A stretch of 64,000 nucleotides of DNA, taken from positions 10,852 to 74,851 of the IMG/VR virus record IMGVR_UViG_3300021092_000026; one strand, given 5' to 3'. Numbering within the stretch: the first letter of the stretch is position 1; the number at the start of each line of letters is the position of its first letter. This stretch comes from a virus. Below, one piece after another: positions 1 to 8,334 of this stretch. A program made the position numbers and the translations under genes. The notes beneath the pieces were generated by a model. That model did not search any database, had not been told where the DNA came from, and saw only the letters and a program-made list of their open reading frames with translations.

Positions 1-1016
1 TCCCCACCGGCTTTAACATCTTTAATGATTTGGTCTAATCTTTGCTTTATACTTCGGGTTGCTTCATCCGGGTTTACTGTTAATACTGAACTCATCAACG
101 ATAACACTTCCGCACCAACACCTAAAAATATATCTTCAAATGGTCTAATATTATCTTTTGTTATTTTTTGATGGTCGTTTTTATCTACACCCACCGCCCA
201 ATCTAATACCTTTTGAGATTTAATGTTATTTGTACCCAATTTAAAACTTTTATCAAAAAATGCCCACCTTTTTACCAATCCATCCTTTGTTGATTTATCT
301 AATTTTTCAGGTGAATTTTTATCTATGTAATCTCCCCACCAAGCCTGATGATATTCTGCAGGCCCATCACTATCTTTTAAACCAAATTTAGATTGTAAGT
401 TTTTTAACATCCCCAAATACTTTGGTTGTAATTTTTCTAAATTTACATCTTTTGGTAATTGTGTAATTGGTGGCCCTTGTATCTTATACTTTTCTTGTAC
501 ATCCTGATTGATTTGTTTAATCATCCCCGCCAATATCTTTGCATCAGATTGGTCGGCCCCAATCGCCACACCGGATTCATCGTATTCATTTGTATTATGA
601 AATATTAAAAGAGCCTGTCCATAAGGTATTACATTTACCGATGTTGGATAAATAACTTCTAAGTTCATAAACTTTTTACCTTGCGCAAATATCTTATCTC
701 GTTGTGCTTTTGATAACCCCTTCACAGCCGTTTCTAAATCCCTCATAGCAAAGTTGTAAGCATCGGTTAGTCCACCCCTACCTCCGAACTTTGAAGCAAC
801 ATCAGCGATTGACATTGCGTTTTCACCACTGTTAGCAAGGTGTCCCTTGTTCCTTGCAGCGATTAATCCCTTATCATCTCTCCAACTAATAGCGAGTGCC
901 TGTCCATCTGTATTATGAATTAATATACCATTTGCATAATAACATGAAAAATTATCAACTTTTATGTCATATCTGGTCTGAACTTTGTTTATTGGTTTTA
1001 TTGATTTAATTTTCAT
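1..1016 (-). CDS. C-terminal half of fractured gene: split-intein C-part fused to a ligase-like (KxDG) C-extein; runs off the window edge; missing from the ORF track
   Basis: Manual translation from ATG 1016: MKIKSIKPINKVQTRYDIKVDNFSCYYANGILIHN/TDGQALAISWRDDKGLIAARNKG...MNLEVIYPTSVNVIPYG...; the same frame reads sensibly at the window edge; the ATG overlaps the upstream endonuclease stop by 11 nt. Confidence 0.9.
   Translation of the reverse strand, partial: MKIKSIKPINKVQTRYDIKVDNFSCYYANGILIHNTDGQALAISWRDDKGLIAARNKGHLANSGENAMSIADVASKFGGRGGLTDAYNFAMRDLETAVKGLSKAQRDKIFAQGKKFMNLEVIYPTSVNVIPYGQALLIFHNTNEYDESGVAIGADQSDAKILAGMIKQINQDVQEKYKIQGPPITQLPKDVNLEKLQPKYLGMLKNLQSKFGLKDSDGPAEYHQAWWGDYIDKNSPEKLDKSTKDGLVKRWAFFDKSFKLGTNNIKSQKVLDWAVGVDKNDHQKITKDNIRPFEDIFLGVGAEVLSLMSSVLTVNPDEATRSIKQRLDQIIKDVKAGG
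912..1016 (-). other. Split intein C-part (IntC, 35 aa)
   Basis: Block F YDIKV, block G NGILIHN, followed by +1 Thr; net basic. Confidence 0.92.
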
Positions 1017-1740
1017 ATCTAATCCTTATAAATTTACAGCCCAATAACTTTTCTATTTTTTCCTGTCGTATTACATCTCTTTTTCGAAGTGAACCATCTT
1101 TATTAAAATGATGCGATTCATCTATTTCAATTACAGCGTTTTTTTCTTTATCATACCCATCCAAATAATAACCAAGCCCTTCAACATAATACTCACCACC
1201 ATTTTCCGCGTGTTGGAAGTTATATCCATATTGCTTACCATACTCTTCTATAATTGGTATAGCATTTACATTGTAATTTGGAAATAAAGACTTAAATGCT
1301 CCAGAAAATCGTATTTTTTCTTTAACTTTTGGGTGCTGAAAAATGTTATCAACTCCATATTTTTCTTTAACAGTTTTATTTCTTTTGTGAAATATTACTG
1401 TCCCTTTAGATAATGGGTTTATTGCACCATATTTTTTCAAATTAGTTTTTTCAATTCTATCTCTATACCCATCCATATAATGAGATTGTTTTACATTTCT
1501 AACAGGTATATTTAATCGTCTAAGTTGTTTGTTCACTATTGTAGATGAACTCCACCCATTTTCATTAGCAATTTGTAGCGCAGATTTACCATTTATTATA
1601 TATTCAGTATATAACATATCATAATTAAATAACCCATCACGCCATTCTTTAAATTTACCACAATTTCTTATATGACCATTTATACTCAAACTACTTTTAA
1701 TTTGAAGTTTATTACCACAATATTTACAAGCTTCTTCCAT
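1006..1740 (-). mobile_element. Free-standing homing endonuclease, Vsr/DUF559-like, between the split-intein halves
   Basis: C-terminal YYLDGYD..NAVIEIDESHH..RDVIRQEKIEKLLGCKFIRI; N-terminal CxxC and KKYG-type repeats; position matches the known fractured-gene architecture. Confidence 0.8.
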
Positions 1741-1803
1741 AGTATGTATTATTTTATATAAATATGTGATTTGTGAAAAAACCGATGGTTGTTGTGTGTA
1801 TTT

Positions 1804-3378
1804 TTACAATGTTTTCAATTCCATATCTTCGGTCAAATCTTTGGCCTGAACATACCCTATACCCTCTACATACATTCTATGATTTGGCGTTACTTGAATG
1901 GTTTTACCATCTTCCAGTTCTATTTCTAACCACTCATCAGTATCATCATTATTAAAAGATGCCATAATACCCATAAATTCATTATTACCAGTTACTTCAT
2001 TAAATGATAATACCAAATCGGTAAGTTTATTATCCACAAACTCCGATATAGGTATGTTTCCATTATTTTTAGTTTCAATAATACTATCACCCGCTATACA
2101 CTTTTCTGTTGTTAATTTCAAATCACCTTTTAGGGCTTTTGTTATTATATTTTTTAAATCACCAAAAGTTAAACCCAATTCCATATCAAATGGGTGATTC
2201 ATGTGTCCGTATGCGCCACCCTCTAACAAAAACTTAGAAAACTTTCTGCCAATTTTTTCTAATAATCTAAATTGTCTATCGTTAATTCTCTTTACTTTAG
2301 TATTGGTAGACCATTCAACAATTTCGTGTCCTAATCTTGCATAAGCTTCTTGTAACTCTTCATCCTTTACTCCTGTAATATCTACTGTATTATTAAGTGG
2401 TGCATCCGGTGGTGCTGCATCCAATGGTGATGTTGCTGTATCAGCCGTTACAAAATCTTCGGTTTCAGGAATATCTAAAAGGTCATCCATTGTAAATACT
2501 TTTCTAGTACTACTATATTGGTAAAAATCCCCAGTACCTTTTGCGGATTTTTTGACCATTACATCTGCTTTTGGAAAATCTAATTGTACATATCCACCAT
2601 TAACAAACCAATAATCGTTTTTTTGTGCTTGCTTACTTAATCCCAAAACCCTTCGTTTATTAGGAACTACATACATTGCGTCAGGTTCACCTGCATCTCC
2701 CCCATATCCACCACTTAGTGTTGACTCAGTTAATGCTTTTATATTAAATGTCTTAAAGAAAGATTCCATTATGGATTCTACTGCTATCAACTTTTTTGTT
2801 ATTAAGTTGTATATTTTGGGATTAAATTTTGGATAAGCTTTTTTAAATCCTGCTTTTCTTTTTGATTCATCTCCCGCTGATAACCACTTTCTTACATCCG
2901 TTCCACTTATTGAGTTTGCCTGCATTGGTGATGCGTAAACATAACCATTTTCTTCATACCCACTAGCAGGTTTGAATCCGTCTCCACTATGAAACTTTTT
3001 GAAATATTTACCACCCAATCGTTGTACATCCTTTTCTCCTACCACAGTTACAAACGCTGTTGTTTTGGGTGAAAATCCACTTAATACTTCGGTTGGGTTA
3101 TATGGGTTTTTTACTTGAACTACTTTATTTGAAGGGATATCAAACATTGTAGTCATTATTTTTTTCTTCTCCAAAAAGTTAAATGGGTCTTTCGGTCCAC
3201 CACTTTTATTGGATGTTCCAATCCAAACCTTATCTTTACCAAACTTTTGAACTAAATGTGAGTATGTTCCATAGTGTCCTTTATGAAAAGGTTGAAACCT
3301 TCCTGCATATACAACCACTATATCTTTTATTTCTTCGGTTAATATTTCTTTAACCCACTCTTTTATTAAATTTCCCAT
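1804..3378 (-). CDS. N-terminal half of fractured gene: cytidyltransferase-like (HxGH) domain, start of a ligase-like domain, then split-intein N-part
   Basis: AGRFQPFHKGH and ISGTDVR motifs; GGAYGHMNHPFD; ends LTTEK/CIAGDS...TPNH...LKTL-stop. Confidence 0.88.
   Translation of the reverse strand: MGNLIKEWVKEILTEEIKDIVVVYAGRFQPFHKGHYGTYSHLVQKFGKDKVWIGTSNKSGGPKDPFNFLEKKKIMTTMFDIPSNKVVQVKNPYNPTEVLSGFSPKTTAFVTVVGEKDVQRLGGKYFKKFHSGDGFKPASGYEENGYVYASPMQANSISGTDVRKWLSAGDESKRKAGFKKAYPKFNPKIYNLITKKLIAVESIMESFFKTFNIKALTESTLSGGYGGDAGEPDAMYVVPNKRRVLGLSKQAQKNDYWFVNGGYVQLDFPKADVMVKKSAKGTGDFYQYSSTRKVFTMDDLLDIPETEDFVTADTATSPLDAAPPDAPLNNTVDITGVKDEELQEAYARLGHEIVEWSTNTKVKRINDRQFRLLEKIGRKFSKFLLEGGAYGHMNHPFDMELGLTFGDLKNIITKALKGDLKLTTEKCIAGDSIIETKNNGNIPISEFVDNKLTDLVLSFNEVTGNNEFMGIMASFNNDDTDEWLEIELEDGKTIQVTPNHRMYVEGIGYVQAKDLTEDMELKTL
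1807..2100 (-). other. Split intein N-part (IntN, 98 aa)
   Basis: Block A CIAGDSII, block B VTPNHRMY, ends at a stop codon; strongly acidic. Confidence 0.92.
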
Positions 3379-3411: not shown

Positions 3412-5178
3412 TTATCCAGAATATGATGATGAATAGTATGGTAAAAATATTATATAATCAGTGTCAACACCTTCATTACTGTGCAATTTAATTTTTAAAT
3501 ATCCATCCGGGTCTGCTAAGAGTGATATAGTTCCCGGTGATGAGTTTCTTATCAAAGAAATATTCTCACCCGATAGCCAATCAATTTTTTCGCCTTCACT
3601 CAACAGAGTGTTGCTTGGTTCGGTTGTATTATTCCACTCACCTTGAATATTTAATCCTAATCTATTATCGCCAGTATCTTTAATTACATTTGTAATAGTA
3701 GATAATGAAGAACTTACATTATTAATTTGAGTGGATAATGATGAACTAGCTTCAGTTAATGTTGTGATAGATGAACTTACATTATTAATTTGAGTGGATA
3801 ATGATGAACTAGCTACAGTTAATGTTGTGATAGATGAACTTACATTATTAATTTGAGTGGATAATGATTGACTTAATTCCGTTATATCACCCCCACCACC
3901 AGAGCCACTTGCTTGACTATCATATCCTTTAAAATAATAATTGGTTAATATCGATTCATAATTTGCAAAATCGTTTTGTGAATTTAAATATTCAATTTTT
4001 ATATCATTTGCCACATTTTTATTGGTTGGATTATATAAAAATGTATGAGTTGATTGAGTTACATTAGTTTGAGTATCAGAGTATATGTCTGTTGATGAGC
4101 CTGTAATAATATCATACAATAGTTTTGTTCCTATTAACTGATATTCTGTTAATGTTCCTCCCGTTGCTCTTGATCTGATATACACATTTATTTTATCAAC
4201 ATTACCTAGAATTGGATTCACATCTTTTATTGTTATATGAGCTAATGATTGTGAAAATATGGTAGTAGAACCTGTACTAATTGTTTCCACCACAAAACTC
4301 CCGGTAGAAAATAATGTAAAAGTTTTTAGTAGTGATGCTGTTTTAGTACTTACAGATGCGGTTAGTGGATTAGAAACTCTAACTTTTCTACTGGTAATAA
4401 ATGATTGTAATGATGCGGTATAATTTTGTGGCTTTAACATTCCTGCACTAAGTTCTGCGGATGTAATTTGTGGGGATAATGTGGTATTTTGTAAGTTAAT
4501 TTTTATTTTACCACCAATCGAATTTGGATTTAATTGATAATTTGGTGTTTCTAAAAACACATTTTGCCCACCAAAATCCGATGTATAAATTATATTTTGA
4601 TTTACAGTTTGATTTACTATTTGTGGTTGATTCAAACTTTGGGTTGGTATTTCTCTATAAAATGAAAATGATTCTGATACGGATATTATTGGTACTGAAT
4701 TTTGGTTTGTAAACACTATTGGAGATTCAGATCTACTATCTCTACTTATAGAAATTTTTCTTTTCCACCTAACATTAATAACATCTCTAAATTCTTCAGG
4801 TATTATCTCACCATCTTCGGTTCTTTCTGCTATACCACATATTATCATTTCACCAATACCATTTGGGGTATTGTATATATCATCCCGTTCACCATAAACC
4901 CACACCGAAATATAGCGTGATAAATCACCTGGTTCGTAATCAGGTATTTCATAGTAAACCGAATTAAGATTTACATCTAATATTTCAATATATAATTGAG
5001 AATTGGGTTTTAGTATATCCTCATTTGGTTTTATCCTAACACCATTTTTACCCCTACCAAAAAAAGAAGGAAACTCTTTTATACCAAAGTATGCTTCTGA
5101 TGTTAATGAAGTATCTTCAATATAAACCGGTATTAAATCTAAATTTTCGTTAAACCTTCTTTTAAATTCCAATGACAT
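3412..5178 (-). CDS. Putative virion structural (tail/fibre-like) protein
   Basis: S/T/N-rich 588 aa protein with a 21-aa coiled-coil-like repeat near the C-terminus. Confidence 0.5.
   Translation of the reverse strand: MSLEFKRRFNENLDLIPVYIEDTSLTSEAYFGIKEFPSFFGRGKNGVRIKPNEDILKPNSQLYIEILDVNLNSVYYEIPDYEPGDLSRYISVWVYGERDDIYNTPNGIGEMIICGIAERTEDGEIIPEEFRDVINVRWKRKISISRDSRSESPIVFTNQNSVPIISVSESFSFYREIPTQSLNQPQIVNQTVNQNIIYTSDFGGQNVFLETPNYQLNPNSIGGKIKINLQNTTLSPQITSAELSAGMLKPQNYTASLQSFITSRKVRVSNPLTASVSTKTASLLKTFTLFSTGSFVVETISTGSTTIFSQSLAHITIKDVNPILGNVDKINVYIRSRATGGTLTEYQLIGTKLLYDIITGSSTDIYSDTQTNVTQSTHTFLYNPTNKNVANDIKIEYLNSQNDFANYESILTNYYFKGYDSQASGSGGGGDITELSQSLSTQINNVSSSITTLTVASSSLSTQINNVSSSITTLTEASSSLSTQINNVSSSLSTITNVIKDTGDNRLGLNIQGEWNNTTEPSNTLLSEGEKIDWLSGENISLIRNSSPGTISLLADPDGYLKIKLHSNEGVDTDYIIFLPYYSSSYSG
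3710..3868. repeat. 63-bp tandem repeat, about 2.5 copies (SSSLSTQINNVSSSITTLTxA)
   Basis: GAACTTACATTATTAATTTGAGTGG starts at 3710, 3773 and 3836. Confidence 0.95.
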
Positions 5179-5193
5179 TTATTTCCCCTATAA

Positions 5194-8100
5194 TTATAAG
5201 TATTTTATTGAAGAAAAAGAATTTATTTTATTTATATCAATTATTTGGTCTACCATATCCCTCGTTTTATCTATATGGGATATTGTAATAATAAAATCAA
5301 ATTGAGTTTTTAAATAATCAAATAATAAATACAAAGAATTAAAATTATCAGTATCCAACGAACCAAACCCCTCATCAATAGCAATAAAATTGGGACGTGG
5401 TAAGTTAGATACACTTATCAATGCGGTCCTGATTGCTATTGAACTCACAAACTTTTCCATACCACTTGTCAACTCTAATGGCCAGTATCTATCATCACCA
5501 TAACAAATATATGAATTTATGTTTTTACCATCCGTATTTAATATGATTTGAAAATCCACTATAGGTTGAAGAATGTTGTTGATTTCAATTTCTAACTTTG
5601 GTAATATTTCTGATATTAATCCATATGGAATACCATCTCGCTTAACTGCTGATAAGTAATATTCATATCCATTGTATTTTAATTCCATTTGATTTAACTT
5701 TTCAATGGACTCATTTACAGATTCAATTGTATTTTTTTGAACACGTAACTCACCCAACAAATCTATTAAATCGGTTGTAACCCTATTTAATTCAGATTGA
5801 GTTTCTACTCTTTTATTTTTCAAAATACTAATTTCATCGTTAAGTTTAATATTGAATTCAACCGATTTTTCTTGCTTTTTGGCTTTTTCAATATCGGATG
5901 ATATTTTTTCATATTGGACTTCGTATTGAGTATAATCAGATTTAGCATCATTTAATTCCGATAAAAGATTATAATATTTACGGTTTGTTTCTTGCTCCTT
6001 TTCTTTGACCTGATTCACCTTTTCTAAATCTGCTTTTACATCACACGCCCTCTGCCTTACAACCTTTTCAGATAATTCCGTTTCTAATTCAGTTATCTTT
6101 TTAGTAAGAGATAGTATTTTGTTTTCTAACTCCAAACTCTGTTTTGCAAATGGAGTGTTTTTGTTTTTAACACAGTGTTCACAATTATCATCGTATGTAA
6201 AAGAACCAATACCCTCCAAGTGTTTTTTAGTATGAGATAAATCAATCTGATACTTTGATATGGTTTGCTTTACCAATGTTATATCCCTATCTAATACACG
6301 CCACTCATTATCTTTTAGTTTTAATTCATCCAAATTGTATTCTTTGTAGAACTCACCAATTCTTTCAAGCTTTTCTTCTAATGGTTTTACCTGATATTGT
6401 AACTCCCTTATATTGGATGATATTACTCCTGTTGAATTTCTACAATCTTTTAATTGGGTATTTAATACTTCCAAATTTAAAGTTTTATCCACAACAATTA
6501 ACTTTGCAGATTTATCTTCAATTTGCTGGTTTATAACCCCAAGCCCATTTTCAAGATTTACTTTTTCAGTTTCTAAATTTGAAATAGAACCTGTTATGGA
6601 TTGGACTACCATTTCAGCTTTTGCTAACTTTGTTGGAAAATCTTGTCCCTTATAATCTTTTAATAAGGTTGATAATTCTTTTATTTCTTCACTTGCTACT
6701 GAATACAATTGTTCAAAAACATCCATATCCAAAAATTGAGCAAGTAATTCTTTTCTTTCTTTTTGCGATTTATCAATAAACCCACTATTGTTAAATTGAG
6801 TTGATAATGCCGTCAATATAAAATCATCGTATGTTCCTACATACTGTCTAATGACTGAATTTGTATCCCGCCTTTCATCCCCATTCAAACTTTCAATATC
6901 CCCCAAATCATTGAATGTGTAAAATTGAGTATCAACCTTTACAGTTCCTTTTTTTGTAGATTTATTTGCAGTTCTTTCAATTACATAATCCCTACCATTT
7001 AATTCAAAAATAAATTTACAATAAAAATTCTTTTTAGAATAATTCATCACATCAACTGCTTTTGATGTTCGGGAACACTTATCAAAAATACAAAATGATA
7101 AAGCATCCCATAAAGAAGATTTACCACTTGCGTTAGGCGCAAATACACCATACGCCCCCTTCATATTCTGAAAGTTTATATGGTTATTCTCACCATAAGA
7201 AAACATATTGGAAAACTCAAAACTTTTTGGTATCCAAACGGAACTTCTAATTGCATATGGATTTACAATCTTTGAGTTTATATCGGCGTTTATACCCTTA
7301 ACAACTTCTAATAATTCTGAATCAATTCCAAATTTTTGGCTTAAATAATCCTCTAATAGTTTATTTTGAAAACCAACATCTCTTACATTTTGTAGAGTTA
7401 CATGTTCACGCTTCCCAACCTGATTAGTGGATAAAACTTTTTGAATACTCAGCTCTTCTATATCATATTTCTTTTTCAAAGAAGATATAACCTTATTTAG
7501 TTGGGATGTGGTTGTATCTTTAACCCTCAATCGTAATCTTGGTTTTGGGCAAATATAATTGCTTGATACAATTTTACCATCCTCAATATCAATTGTTCCA
7601 TACCCATACTCATTCTCAATATGAACGAATGTAGAGGACTTTGTGGGTAAATCCCATACCAATATCCCATGTTCAGGATAAATTGATTCTGAATGGTTCT
7701 GTGTAATCAGGGAGCCTGGATACTTTATCGTATCTACACCTGATACTGAATTATTGGGGACATGAATATCCCCTAATAAAGTAATATCATATCCTCTAAA
7801 AGAATCTACTGTAACTTTTTTATTATCAATCTTAAATCCATGTTCGGTTTGTATCCCATCAACGGGTCCGTGATAAAGAGCAATCTTAAAATCTCCATTA
7901 ACATCTGAACTATTTGTAAAACCATCTGATGAATCAAACACCGATTTATGTGCAAATGTAATACCACCAAATTCAAAGGTTGTAGTGTTTTTATAATAAA
8001 ATAAGTTTGGATGATTTAACGCATCAACAATTGGTGATAACGCATCTAATCGAGAAGGATTATTTAGGTTTGCATCGTGATTACCGGGGATTAAAATAGT

Positions 8101-8334
8101 AGGCATAATATCCGATAAACTTCTTAAAAAGTTTTGAGTCATATGAACCACTTCAGGTGTCATATCGGTTTTAGCATGAACAATATCCCCAGCCAATACA
8201 ATAGCTGAATCATTAGTAACAACCGATTTTAGGTAATCATATAAACGATTAAAGACTAACGAATATTCTTTGTGTCTCTTTAAGTTTCGTATATGAACAT
8301 CGGCAATATGATAAATCTTATTTAACTTTTTCAT
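5194..8334 (-). CDS. Fused Mre11/SbcD nuclease and Rad50/SbcC ATPase (T4 gp47-gp46-like)
   Basis: Phosphoesterase motifs DVH, GD, GNHD, GDIH; Walker A APNASGKSS; coiled coil with CEHC zinc hook; signature TSGME; Walker B IAIDEGFGSLD; H-loop ISH. Confidence 0.92.
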   Translation of the reverse strand: MKKLNKIYHIADVHIRNLKRHKEYSLVFNRLYDYLKSVVTNDSAIVLAGDIVHAKTDMTPEVVHMTQNFLRSLSDIMPTILIPGNHDANLNNPSRLDALSPIVDALNHPNLFYYKNTTTFEFGGITFAHKSVFDSSDGFTNSSDVNGDFKIALYHGPVDGIQTEHGFKIDNKKVTVDSFRGYDITLLGDIHVPNNSVSGVDTIKYPGSLITQNHSESIYPEHGILVWDLPTKSSTFVHIENEYGYGTIDIEDGKIVSSNYICPKPRLRLRVKDTTTSQLNKVISSLKKKYDIEELSIQKVLSTNQVGKREHVTLQNVRDVGFQNKLLEDYLSQKFGIDSELLEVVKGINADINSKIVNPYAIRSSVWIPKSFEFSNMFSYGENNHINFQNMKGAYGVFAPNASGKSSLWDALSFCIFDKCSRTSKAVDVMNYSKKNFYCKFIFELNGRDYVIERTANKSTKKGTVKVDTQFYTFNDLGDIESLNGDERRDTNSVIRQYVGTYDDFILTALSTQFNNSGFIDKSQKERKELLAQFLDMDVFEQLYSVASEEIKELSTLLKDYKGQDFPTKLAKAEMVVQSITGSISNLETEKVNLENGLGVINQQIEDKSAKLIVVDKTLNLEVLNTQLKDCRNSTGVISSNIRELQYQVKPLEEKLERIGEFYKEYNLDELKLKDNEWRVLDRDITLVKQTISKYQIDLSHTKKHLEGIGSFTYDDNCEHCVKNKNTPFAKQSLELENKILSLTKKITELETELSEKVVRQRACDVKADLEKVNQVKEKEQETNRKYYNLLSELNDAKSDYTQYEVQYEKISSDIEKAKKQEKSVEFNIKLNDEISILKNKRVETQSELNRVTTDLIDLLGELRVQKNTIESVNESIEKLNQMELKYNGYEYYLSAVKRDGIPYGLISEILPKLEIEINNILQPIVDFQIILNTDGKNINSYICYGDDRYWPLELTSGMEKFVSSIAIRTALISVSNLPRPNFIAIDEGFGSLDTDNFNSLYLLFDYLKTQFDFIITISHIDKTRDMVDQIIDINKINSFSSIKYL

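Follow-up and report, generated by a model that had tools for sequence, protein, structure and literature searches.

A putative fractured RNA-ligase-like gene of a freshwater phage, interrupted by a split intein directly after its predicted motif I lysine and accompanied by a probable Vsr-like endonuclease

The window analyzed here is a stretch of 64,000 nucleotides (nt), bases 10852-74851 of the linear, 74,851-bp IMG/VR virus record IMGVR_UViG_3300021092_000026, for which CheckV estimates a completeness of 41%. Its large terminase shares 56-58% identity with that of Microcystis phage Mel-JY01 and with those of the Flavobacterium 'immuto' phages, all of which have genomes of 160-190 kb, and because the whole stretch is present in 14 lake-water metagenome runs (2018) we ascribe it to a freshwater phage. 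At the left end of the window lies a ligase-like gene in two pieces, with the N-terminal (IntN) and C-terminal (IntC) halves of an intein at the break and a free-standing endonuclease gene between them. Every part of this split locus is on the minus strand, and its features are as follows:

2101-3378, minus strand: N-extein of 426 amino acids (aa), with a CTP_transf_like-type domain, a middle region and the ~40 residues that open the ligase-like module, with ...LKLTTEK at its end
2887-3312, minus strand: cytidylyltransferase-like domain (aa 23-164), with GRFQPFHKGH at 3274-3303 and ISGTDVR at 2890-2910
2101-2220, minus strand: N-terminal end of the ligase-like module (GGAYGHMNHPFD through the motif I Lys of EK|TDG), as placed by motif positions and the alignment A1 described below
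1807-2100, minus strand: acidic IntN of 98 aa, with Cys1 and the block B TPNH (1879-1890), followed by its stop codon at 1804-1806
1775-1788, plus strand: conserved element GAAAAAACCGATGG upstream of the endonuclease gene, an inverted 13/14 copy of the intein-less junction
1006-1740, minus strand: free-standing homing endonuclease gene (244 aa), with an N-terminal CxxC...H...C element, a helical region for DNA binding (DUF7487 repeat) and a putative Vsr-like PD-(D/E)xK nuclease domain at aa 154-244
912-1016, minus strand: basic IntC of 35 aa, ending in ...YANGILIHN, with its ATG within the 3' end of the endonuclease gene and an AGGA 8 nt upstream
1-911, minus strand (whole: L001:10686-11762): C-extein of 359 aa, from the +1 Thr of TDGQALAISW, supplying the remainder of the ligase-like fold

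The original prediction for this locus had described an open reading frame (ORF) at 1804-3378 that ends in a 98-aa IntN, another from 1016 that opens with a 35-aa basic IntC ending in HN and followed by TDGQ, and a free-standing endonuclease between the two, and this arrangement stands in every part, the endonuclease being the ORF at 1006-1740 (244 aa). The N-piece is 524 aa long (426-aa N-extein plus 98-aa IntN), and a recount of the charged residues of IntN returned the figures given before, 20 Asp/Glu versus 6 Lys/Arg; IntC has 6 Lys/Arg versus 2 Asp/Glu. The C-piece crosses the left edge of the window, beyond which lie the final 56 aa of the C-extein (G000:C1:10686-10851), and on the full contig it measures 394 aa (L001:10683-11867), i.e. 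the 35-aa IntC plus the 359-aa C-extein. The endonuclease ORF begins 63 nt downstream of the IntN stop codon and overlaps the start of the C-piece by 11 nt. The 74.9-kb contig yielded no second intein or endonuclease paralog. An apparent joint at 2220-2562 among contigs aligned to the window was disregarded, since the high-depth contigs that produce it are unrelated and have a mere 20 letters to one side of it. We regard the locus as very probably a fractured RNA-ligase-like gene, with a split intein inserted exactly after the motif I Lys and a Vsr-like endonuclease between the pieces, for which both splicing and ligase activity are predicted.

The conserved elements of the intein are those expected of a naturally split class-1 mini-intein. 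Cys1 (Cys427 of the N-piece) directly follows ...TTEK and is kept in all 10 N-pieces examined, block B is represented by TPNH (aa 497-500 of the N-piece; TPNH or TPSH in relatives), and the C-terminal His-Asn precedes a +1 Thr (...ILIHN|TDGQ), with HN|TDG present in 22 of 22 C-pieces. In phmmer searches IntN matched the NrdJ-1 split intein (8ubs) over residues 2-95 with an expectation value (E) of 2.8e-10, and the DnaE inteins at ~1e-3 to 1e-2. IntC gave weak matches to the C-termini of the DnaX, CDC21 and RecA mini-inteins and a hit to positions 122-155 of Pfam Intein_splicing (E 4.6e-3, under the curated cut-off); as it had no match to the 8ubs chain even at E 10, the split pair is divergent from NrdJ-1. 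Contiguous relatives of the intein carry Pfam PF07591 and PF14890. Measured against three split relatives, the ratio of non-synonymous to synonymous substitution rates (dN/dS) is 0.12-0.19 for IntN, 0.09-0.14 for IntC, 0.18-0.27 for the endonuclease and 0.10-0.38 for the exteins, and the low values of the two intein halves and the endonuclease indicate purifying selection and a maintained rather than a decaying element.

Searches with the N-piece recovered intein-less alleles, 90-92% identical and exactly 785 aa long (426+359), which read ...KGDLELTREK-TDGQALAISWRDD... without interruption. The N-extein is 90-92% identical to the first 426 aa of these alleles and the C-extein 91% identical to their residues 427-785, with the junction between the two reading LTREK-TDGQALAISW. 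It had been proposed that intein-less homologs should contain a contiguous EKTDGQ and that splicing to LTTEK-TDGQ would restore a KxDG motif; the contiguous sequence is indeed present in the 785-aa alleles, whose REK-TDGQ is joined exactly at the predicted point, and REK|TDG lies uninterrupted in one frame in 73 of 79 related IMG/VR loci, being split there in 6 of the 79. A more distant, uninterrupted homolog of 639 aa in the Microcystis phage Mel-JY01 has VTEK-LDG at the junction. Among 508 fetched proteins EKTDG[QN] was found in 264, a start with the 35-aa IntC in 22 and an end with IntN in 10.

Further states of the same site are also represented: 1) P0013 and P0023, stand-alone modules of the 414-aa type, contain at this position a contiguous 137-aa mini-intein that aligns with IntN plus IntC and has a 4-residue loop at the split point. 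2) One locus (L015:5883-5896) has the split intein without an endonuclease gene, with 12 nt separating the IntN stop from the IntC start. 3) The order N-piece, endonuclease, C-piece recurs in five other loci, the endonuclease being 244 aa long in L006, L007 and L048, as in the window, and 304 aa in L008 and L044. Judging from these sequences the site is polymorphic in natural populations, occurring empty, with a contiguous mini-intein, split without an endonuclease, and split with an endonuclease of either length. The same IntN closes N-pieces of 506-911 aa with quite different upstream domains, and hence the element has spread across gene architectures by way of the conserved module.

This module comprises the ~400 C-terminal residues of the host protein, from GGAYGHMNHPFD onward. 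A full HMMER scan with the intact 414-aa stand-alone protein P0062 as query recovered 1,791 clusters at 50% identity (E up to 1e-3), and in nearly all the matches listed the module is C-terminal, in host proteins of up to 1,930 aa. Across 50 diverse module members aligned together (alignment A1; 39-77% identity to the reference) the residues K55, D57, G58, A73, R74, E139, H159, E385, G386 and K397 are invariant, those of a GGxxGH...H element are nearly so, and the candidate motifs Ia, III, IIIa, IV and V of the C-extein are invariant or nearly so. K55, the motif I Lys, is the -1 residue of the intein. In an AlphaFold2 model of the intact module (predicted local distance difference test score, pLDDT, 92.4) K55 ends one strand of a hairpin and G58 precedes the next, KxDG being at the β-hairpin turn, and E139, H159, E385-G386 and K397 lie on strands 134-141, 155-164, 386-391 and 394-398, in the canonical order of ligase motifs; on this model the residues would correspond to motifs III, IIIa, IV and V. 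A helical insertion of ~190 residues separates the candidate motifs IIIa and IV.

In a Foldseek-independent fold search with the module over 48,161 representative chains the ten top-ranked rows (Z 7.2-8.8) were without exception RNA or DNA ligases, among them NgrRnl, Trl1, REL1, T4 Rnl1, T4 Rnl2 (two entries), a Prochlorococcus-phage-type DNA ligase and the archaeal Rnl3. When Foldseek candidates were rescored, NgrRnl reached Z 9.3 and T4 Rnl1 Z 9.0, and all 50 of the 50 rows listed were ligases. An hhalign comparison of the module profile with T4 Rnl1, without reaching significance, laid EKTDG on TK99EDG, ARNKG on KSK119G and NLEV on NFE159F; the residues K99, K119 and E159 are essential in Rnl1. 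The same profile had no match to T4 DNA ligase in hhalign, and the C-extein alone matched nothing in Pfam (E up to 10), NCBIfam or PDB (phmmer). A profile of the 50 members run against PDB gave only matches to eS6 and TetR, which we consider spurious. Among the 50 members none reached the thresholds of the Pfam families RNA_ligase, RNA_lig_T4_1, DNA_ligase_A_M or DNA_ligase_aden, with sub-threshold hits to RNA_ligase in 3 (best E 0.042) and to DNA_ligase_aden in 4 (best E 0.025). Because of this lack of a family match we refer to the module as ligase-like and refrain from assigning it to any of the named Rnl families. In the ESM Atlas the clusters nearest to the module carry DUF6267 in 21-24% of their members. 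This domain (PF19782, 376 positions), of which our literature search found no mention, matched nothing in the genome here at a limit of E 10; it may represent a remotely related sister family of the module.

From the invariance of its residues and the modelled fold we conclude that the module is probably a ligase-type lysine nucleotidyltransferase, most like the RNA ligases, and that the intein follows its predicted nucleotide-accepting Lys. The proposal that the intein sits immediately after the putative catalytic Lys of a KxDG motif is borne out to the extent that K, D and G are invariant in all 50 members and that the fold model ranks ligases first. The domain context points in the same direction. 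One relative, P0262 (1930 aa), contains a CTP_transf_like domain, DUF5661, an AAA_33 kinase, an HD domain and a PolyA_pol head with an RNA-binding domain, followed by the module, and it looks like an all-in-one RNA-repair polyprotein. Since P0262 joins kinase, HD and CCA-adding domains to the module, a role of the latter in RNA repair is suggested. As a set these domains recall the phage RNA repair toolkit, which comprises kinase, phosphoesterase, nucleotide-adding and ligase activities (PMC7824862).

In the protein of the window the module is preceded by the N-terminal domain, which matched Pfam CTP_transf_like at aa 23-164 (E 3.2e-6; 27.8 bits versus a cut-off of 21). It contains HKGH (aa 32-35, inside GRFQPFHKGH) and ISGTDVR (aa 157-163), and HxGH- and ISxTxxR-type motifs are signatures of the cytidylyltransferase-like superfamily. 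The nearest NCBIfam models of the N-extein are those of the NadM-type nicotinamide mononucleotide adenylyltransferases, albeit weak and far under their cut-offs. Two short elements were also noted in the linker and the leader of the module. A W-F-x-x-G-G-Y-x-Q-x-D-F-P-K-A-D motif (~2500-2640, minus strand; N-extein aa 250-290) recurs in the linkers of P0053, P0108, P0176 and P0177, relatives that otherwise have different architectures. A hydrophobic L-L-x-E stands directly before GGAYGHM in both fused and stand-alone modules (2215-2235, minus strand; P0062, P0106, P0013), for instance as KFLLE|GG and EVLLKE|GG, and a similar leader, MGNLIKEW...LTEE, opens the polyprotein (3331-3378, minus strand).

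The endonuclease encoded between the two pieces matched a PHROG annotated 'homing endonuclease' (E 8.9e-7), with a hit to Pfam DUF7487 under the cut-off. It has 353 homologs, one of them named a very-short-patch-repair (Vsr) endonuclease by its source, and many relatives share only the last ~90 residues (60-70% identity), which there stand behind other DNA-binding modules such as NUMOD3. D194, E205, D207, E208, H211 and D222 are invariant. In the model of the protein (pLDDT 84.6) residues 154-244 fold into a compact C-terminal domain, which Foldseek matched to I-Bth0305I (3r3p) with a probability of 0.90 and a modest template-modelling (TM) score of 0.45 on the target. In VIA comparisons this domain reached likewise modest scores of Z 6.3 with Vsr (1cw0) and Z 6.2 with 3r3p, and it scored Z 6.5 with a DUF559-like protein and Z 8.7-10.2 with RAP domains, and many PD-(D/E)xK nucleases rank after these RAP and Vsr-type matches. 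As PDB sequences, 3r3p included, gave no significant match, the family assignment rests on fold and motif spacing. On these grounds the endonuclease fits the Vsr-like class reported in fractured genes, and the earlier suggestion that the intervening ORF is a fractured-gene endonuclease agrees with its Vsr-like nuclease domain, as in the published cases (PMC2677866, PMC3239194).

Within the 63 nt that precede the endonuclease start lies CCATCGGTTTTTTC. Its reverse complement, GAAAAAACCGATGG (1775-1788), agrees with the intein-less junction GAAAAG|ACCGATGG in 13 of 14 letters. When 3,000 dinucleotide shuffles and 3,000 random genomic 63-mers were examined, not one reached 13/14 across the junction. 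Of the five other split loci with an endonuclease, four keep the copy (L006, L007, L044 and L048), two of them in otherwise diverged spacers, and the fifth, L008, has a more diverged version. The homing endonuclease I-TevI represses its own gene, and by analogy the most economical reading of the junction copy is that of a candidate operator for autorepression by the endonuclease. An RNA hairpin upstream of the endonuclease start, of the type of Dassa et al., found no support, the predicted fold being no better than those of shuffles (z -0.22), and such a hairpin does not account for the junction copy. The sequence CATATTTAT near the endonuclease start occurs 6 times in the window versus 3.9 expected; as this is no enrichment, we name no promoter.

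We propose that the 524-aa precursor, by way of its acidic IntN, binds the basic IntC of the 394-aa precursor, and that Cys1, the block B TPNH, the closing His-Asn of IntC and the +1 Thr would then perform protein trans-splicing, which would free the intein and rebuild ...LTTEK-TDGQ.... Neither precursor alone is expected to be ligase-competent, because the piece with the nucleotidyl-accepting Lys lacks the remainder of the fold, which the other piece supplies. During co-infection the endonuclease would cut intein-less alleles at the EK|TDG junction, so that the whole cassette would be copied in by repair, and the inverted copy of the junction may allow the endonuclease to repress its own gene. 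The rebuilt module would most likely act as an ATP-dependent RNA ligase in phage RNA (tRNA) repair.

Several observations weigh against this account. The structural Z scores of 8-9 fall in a range that the tool rates as middling, the hhalign match of the module profile to T4 Rnl1 has an E of 0.11, which is not significant, and the module is without a sequence match in Pfam, NCBIfam or PDB; the identification of K55 as the catalytic Lys rests on its invariance, the motif order, the fold ranking and a weak alignment. The Pfam hits of IntN to Intein_splicing (E 2e-4) and Hint (E 1.5e-3) are both under the curated cut-off, and the block F histidine common in many inteins is absent from IntC (...VDNFSCYY...). 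The two extein/intein junctions and portions of the endonuclease gene are covered by contigs from RNA libraries, which is a weak hint of transcription and not proof of it. Furthermore, the association of the halves, their trans-splicing and the ligase activity are predictions, and so are cleavage of the junction and autorepression by the endonuclease, the inverted copy of the junction being the one indirect hint of cleavage. Some of these points favor the alternative that the intein halves are a non-splicing relic, the two pieces either forming a non-covalent complex via those halves or having lost the ligase function. The fragmented NrdA of phage Aeh1 has been reported as such a non-covalent complex (PMC3045599), and the lack of the block F histidine and the sub-threshold Pfam scores would be in keeping with a relic. 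However, the nucleophiles, the TPNH block and the HN are kept in every copy examined, even though the N-exteins of their hosts are only 47-79% identical, and the dN/dS of the halves (0.09-0.19) is as low as that of the exteins. Moreover, as the Lys and the remaining part of motif I are on separate chains, a non-covalent active site would have to accommodate a bulky intein inside the nucleotide pocket. We consider a relic very improbable.

It is likewise unlikely that the module is something other than a polynucleotide ligase, be it a capping-enzyme-like lysine nucleotidyltransferase or a non-catalytic domain, with the intein occupying a conserved loop. Such a nature could be argued from the failure to match any ligase family at the sequence level, from the lack of a counterpart in known ligases to the ~190-residue helical insertion between motifs IIIa and IV, from the presence of capping enzymes and snurportin in the fold list at Z 5-5.7, and from the fact that the module is nearly always the last domain of a long multidomain protein; but RNA ligases top every other fold, the five candidate motifs are invariant, in canonical order and on the expected strands, and P0262 fuses the module to RNA-end-healing and CCA-adding domains. 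The possibility that the arrangement is an assembly artefact or a pseudogene from a chimeric contig is practically negligible, despite the metagenomic derivation and incompleteness of the record: the same order is found in five further IMG/VR contigs that stem from different samples, the protein clusters number at least 22 for the C-piece and at least 10 for the N-piece, and an assembly artefact is ruled out by an independent 2,204-nt lake-water contig that spans 822-3025 of the window unbroken.

In its layout the locus closely resembles the fractured genes of environmental phages described by Dassa et al. in 2009, whose hosts are gp41, IMPDH, DnaE, NrdA, NrdJ, a Felix-O1-like DNA ligase, terminase and a protein of unknown function beside nrdB (PMC2677866). 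The shared features are: 1) the succession of N-extein-IntN, a free-standing endonuclease, here of putative Vsr-like type, on the same strand, and IntC-C-extein; 2) insertion at a conserved active-site motif; 3) an endonuclease-less allele, here that of L015 and there that of gp41-7; and 4) an acidic IntN with a basic IntC, as in NrdJ-1, IMPDH-1 and NrdA-2 (PMC2677866). It differs from them in its host, an unannotated RNA-ligase-like module joined to a cytidylyltransferase-like domain, which is a protein different from the Felix-O1-like DNA ligase, and in its Lys/Thr at -1/+1. With NrdJ-1 (8ubs) the intein shares Cys1, the TPxH block, a similar IntN length and the same charge polarity, yet host protein and insertion site are both different, and it is not an allele of NrdJ-1. 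In the endonuclease the spacing of 17 residues between D194 and H211 equals that between D196 and H213 of I-Bth0305I, a homing endonuclease of the EDxHD (Vsr-like) type, with a further invariant Asp following (PMC3239194). Both enzymes have a modular N-terminal DNA-binding region, and the nuclease domain here matches 3r3p and Vsr by fold; the N-terminus is nevertheless different, with a Cys/His element and DUF7487 repeats in place of NUMOD2.

The ATP-dependent RNA ligases T4 Rnl1, NgrRnl, Trl1, REL1 and Rnl2 share with the module the nucleotidyltransferase fold (Z 8-9.3 over ~185-210 aligned residues), a KxDG at a β-hairpin turn and the setting of phage RNA repair (PMC7824862). Also shared are four candidate motifs that are conserved in the module, namely Ia (Lys), III (Glu), IV (EG) and V (Lys). 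In contrast to them the module has only ~12% identity and no family-level sequence match, contains the ~190-residue helical insertion, has its motifs IV and V at the extreme C-terminus, and displays a conserved GGAYGHMxHPFD before motif I.

A literature search found no paper on inteins in this ligase-like protein family or at the EK|TDG site, and the inteins that Pinto et al. 2020 name in their main text do not include this one. The suggestion that host protein and insertion site might be new is therefore left standing, no paper having been found that names either. What the locus presents is a new host protein and a new insertion site within the known phage fractured-gene arrangement, and it goes beyond a routine example of the latter in three respects, namely a widespread, unannotated ligase-like host family, a complete allele series, and a copy of the homing site beside the endonuclease gene. 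A bolder combination, in which a new and widespread clade of RNA ligases ends modular RNA-repair polyproteins, all stages of gene breaking survive and the endonuclease represses itself through the inverted homing site, is a tentative proposal about which we have more doubt than conviction. If true, it would provide a new ligase family and a natural test bed for the origin of split inteins, and protein engineering would gain a new split intein with Lys(-1)/Thr(+1).

Two neighboring ORFs of the window, both on the minus strand, were noted in passing. The first, of 1046 aa (5194-8334), appears by sequence to join a Mre11/SbcD-like phosphoesterase N-terminus (DVH...GNHD) to a Rad50/SbcC-like ATPase with long coiled coils, and would thereby be a fusion of gp47 and gp46. 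The second, of 588 aa (3412-5178), contains three near-identical segments of ~18 aa (SSLSTQINNVSSSITTLT), and its product is probably a fibre or structural protein.

With respect to applications, the phage split inteins gp41-1, NrdJ-1 and IMPDH-1 are described as being among the fastest protein-ligation tools (PMC7090010). By extrapolation from these relatives the present pair may likewise splice fast and be orthogonal, and a divergent split intein with Lys at -1 and Thr at +1 could widen both the range of usable junctions and the set of orthogonal pairs. As regards evolution, the co-existence of empty, contiguous, split and endonuclease-bearing alleles makes the gene-breaking model of split-intein origin directly testable. 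Finally, the locus draws attention to a large family of phage proteins that resemble RNA ligases and lack annotation, whose polynucleotide-kinase-like, HD and CCA-adding domain partners suggest a function in the repair of host-cleaved tRNA.

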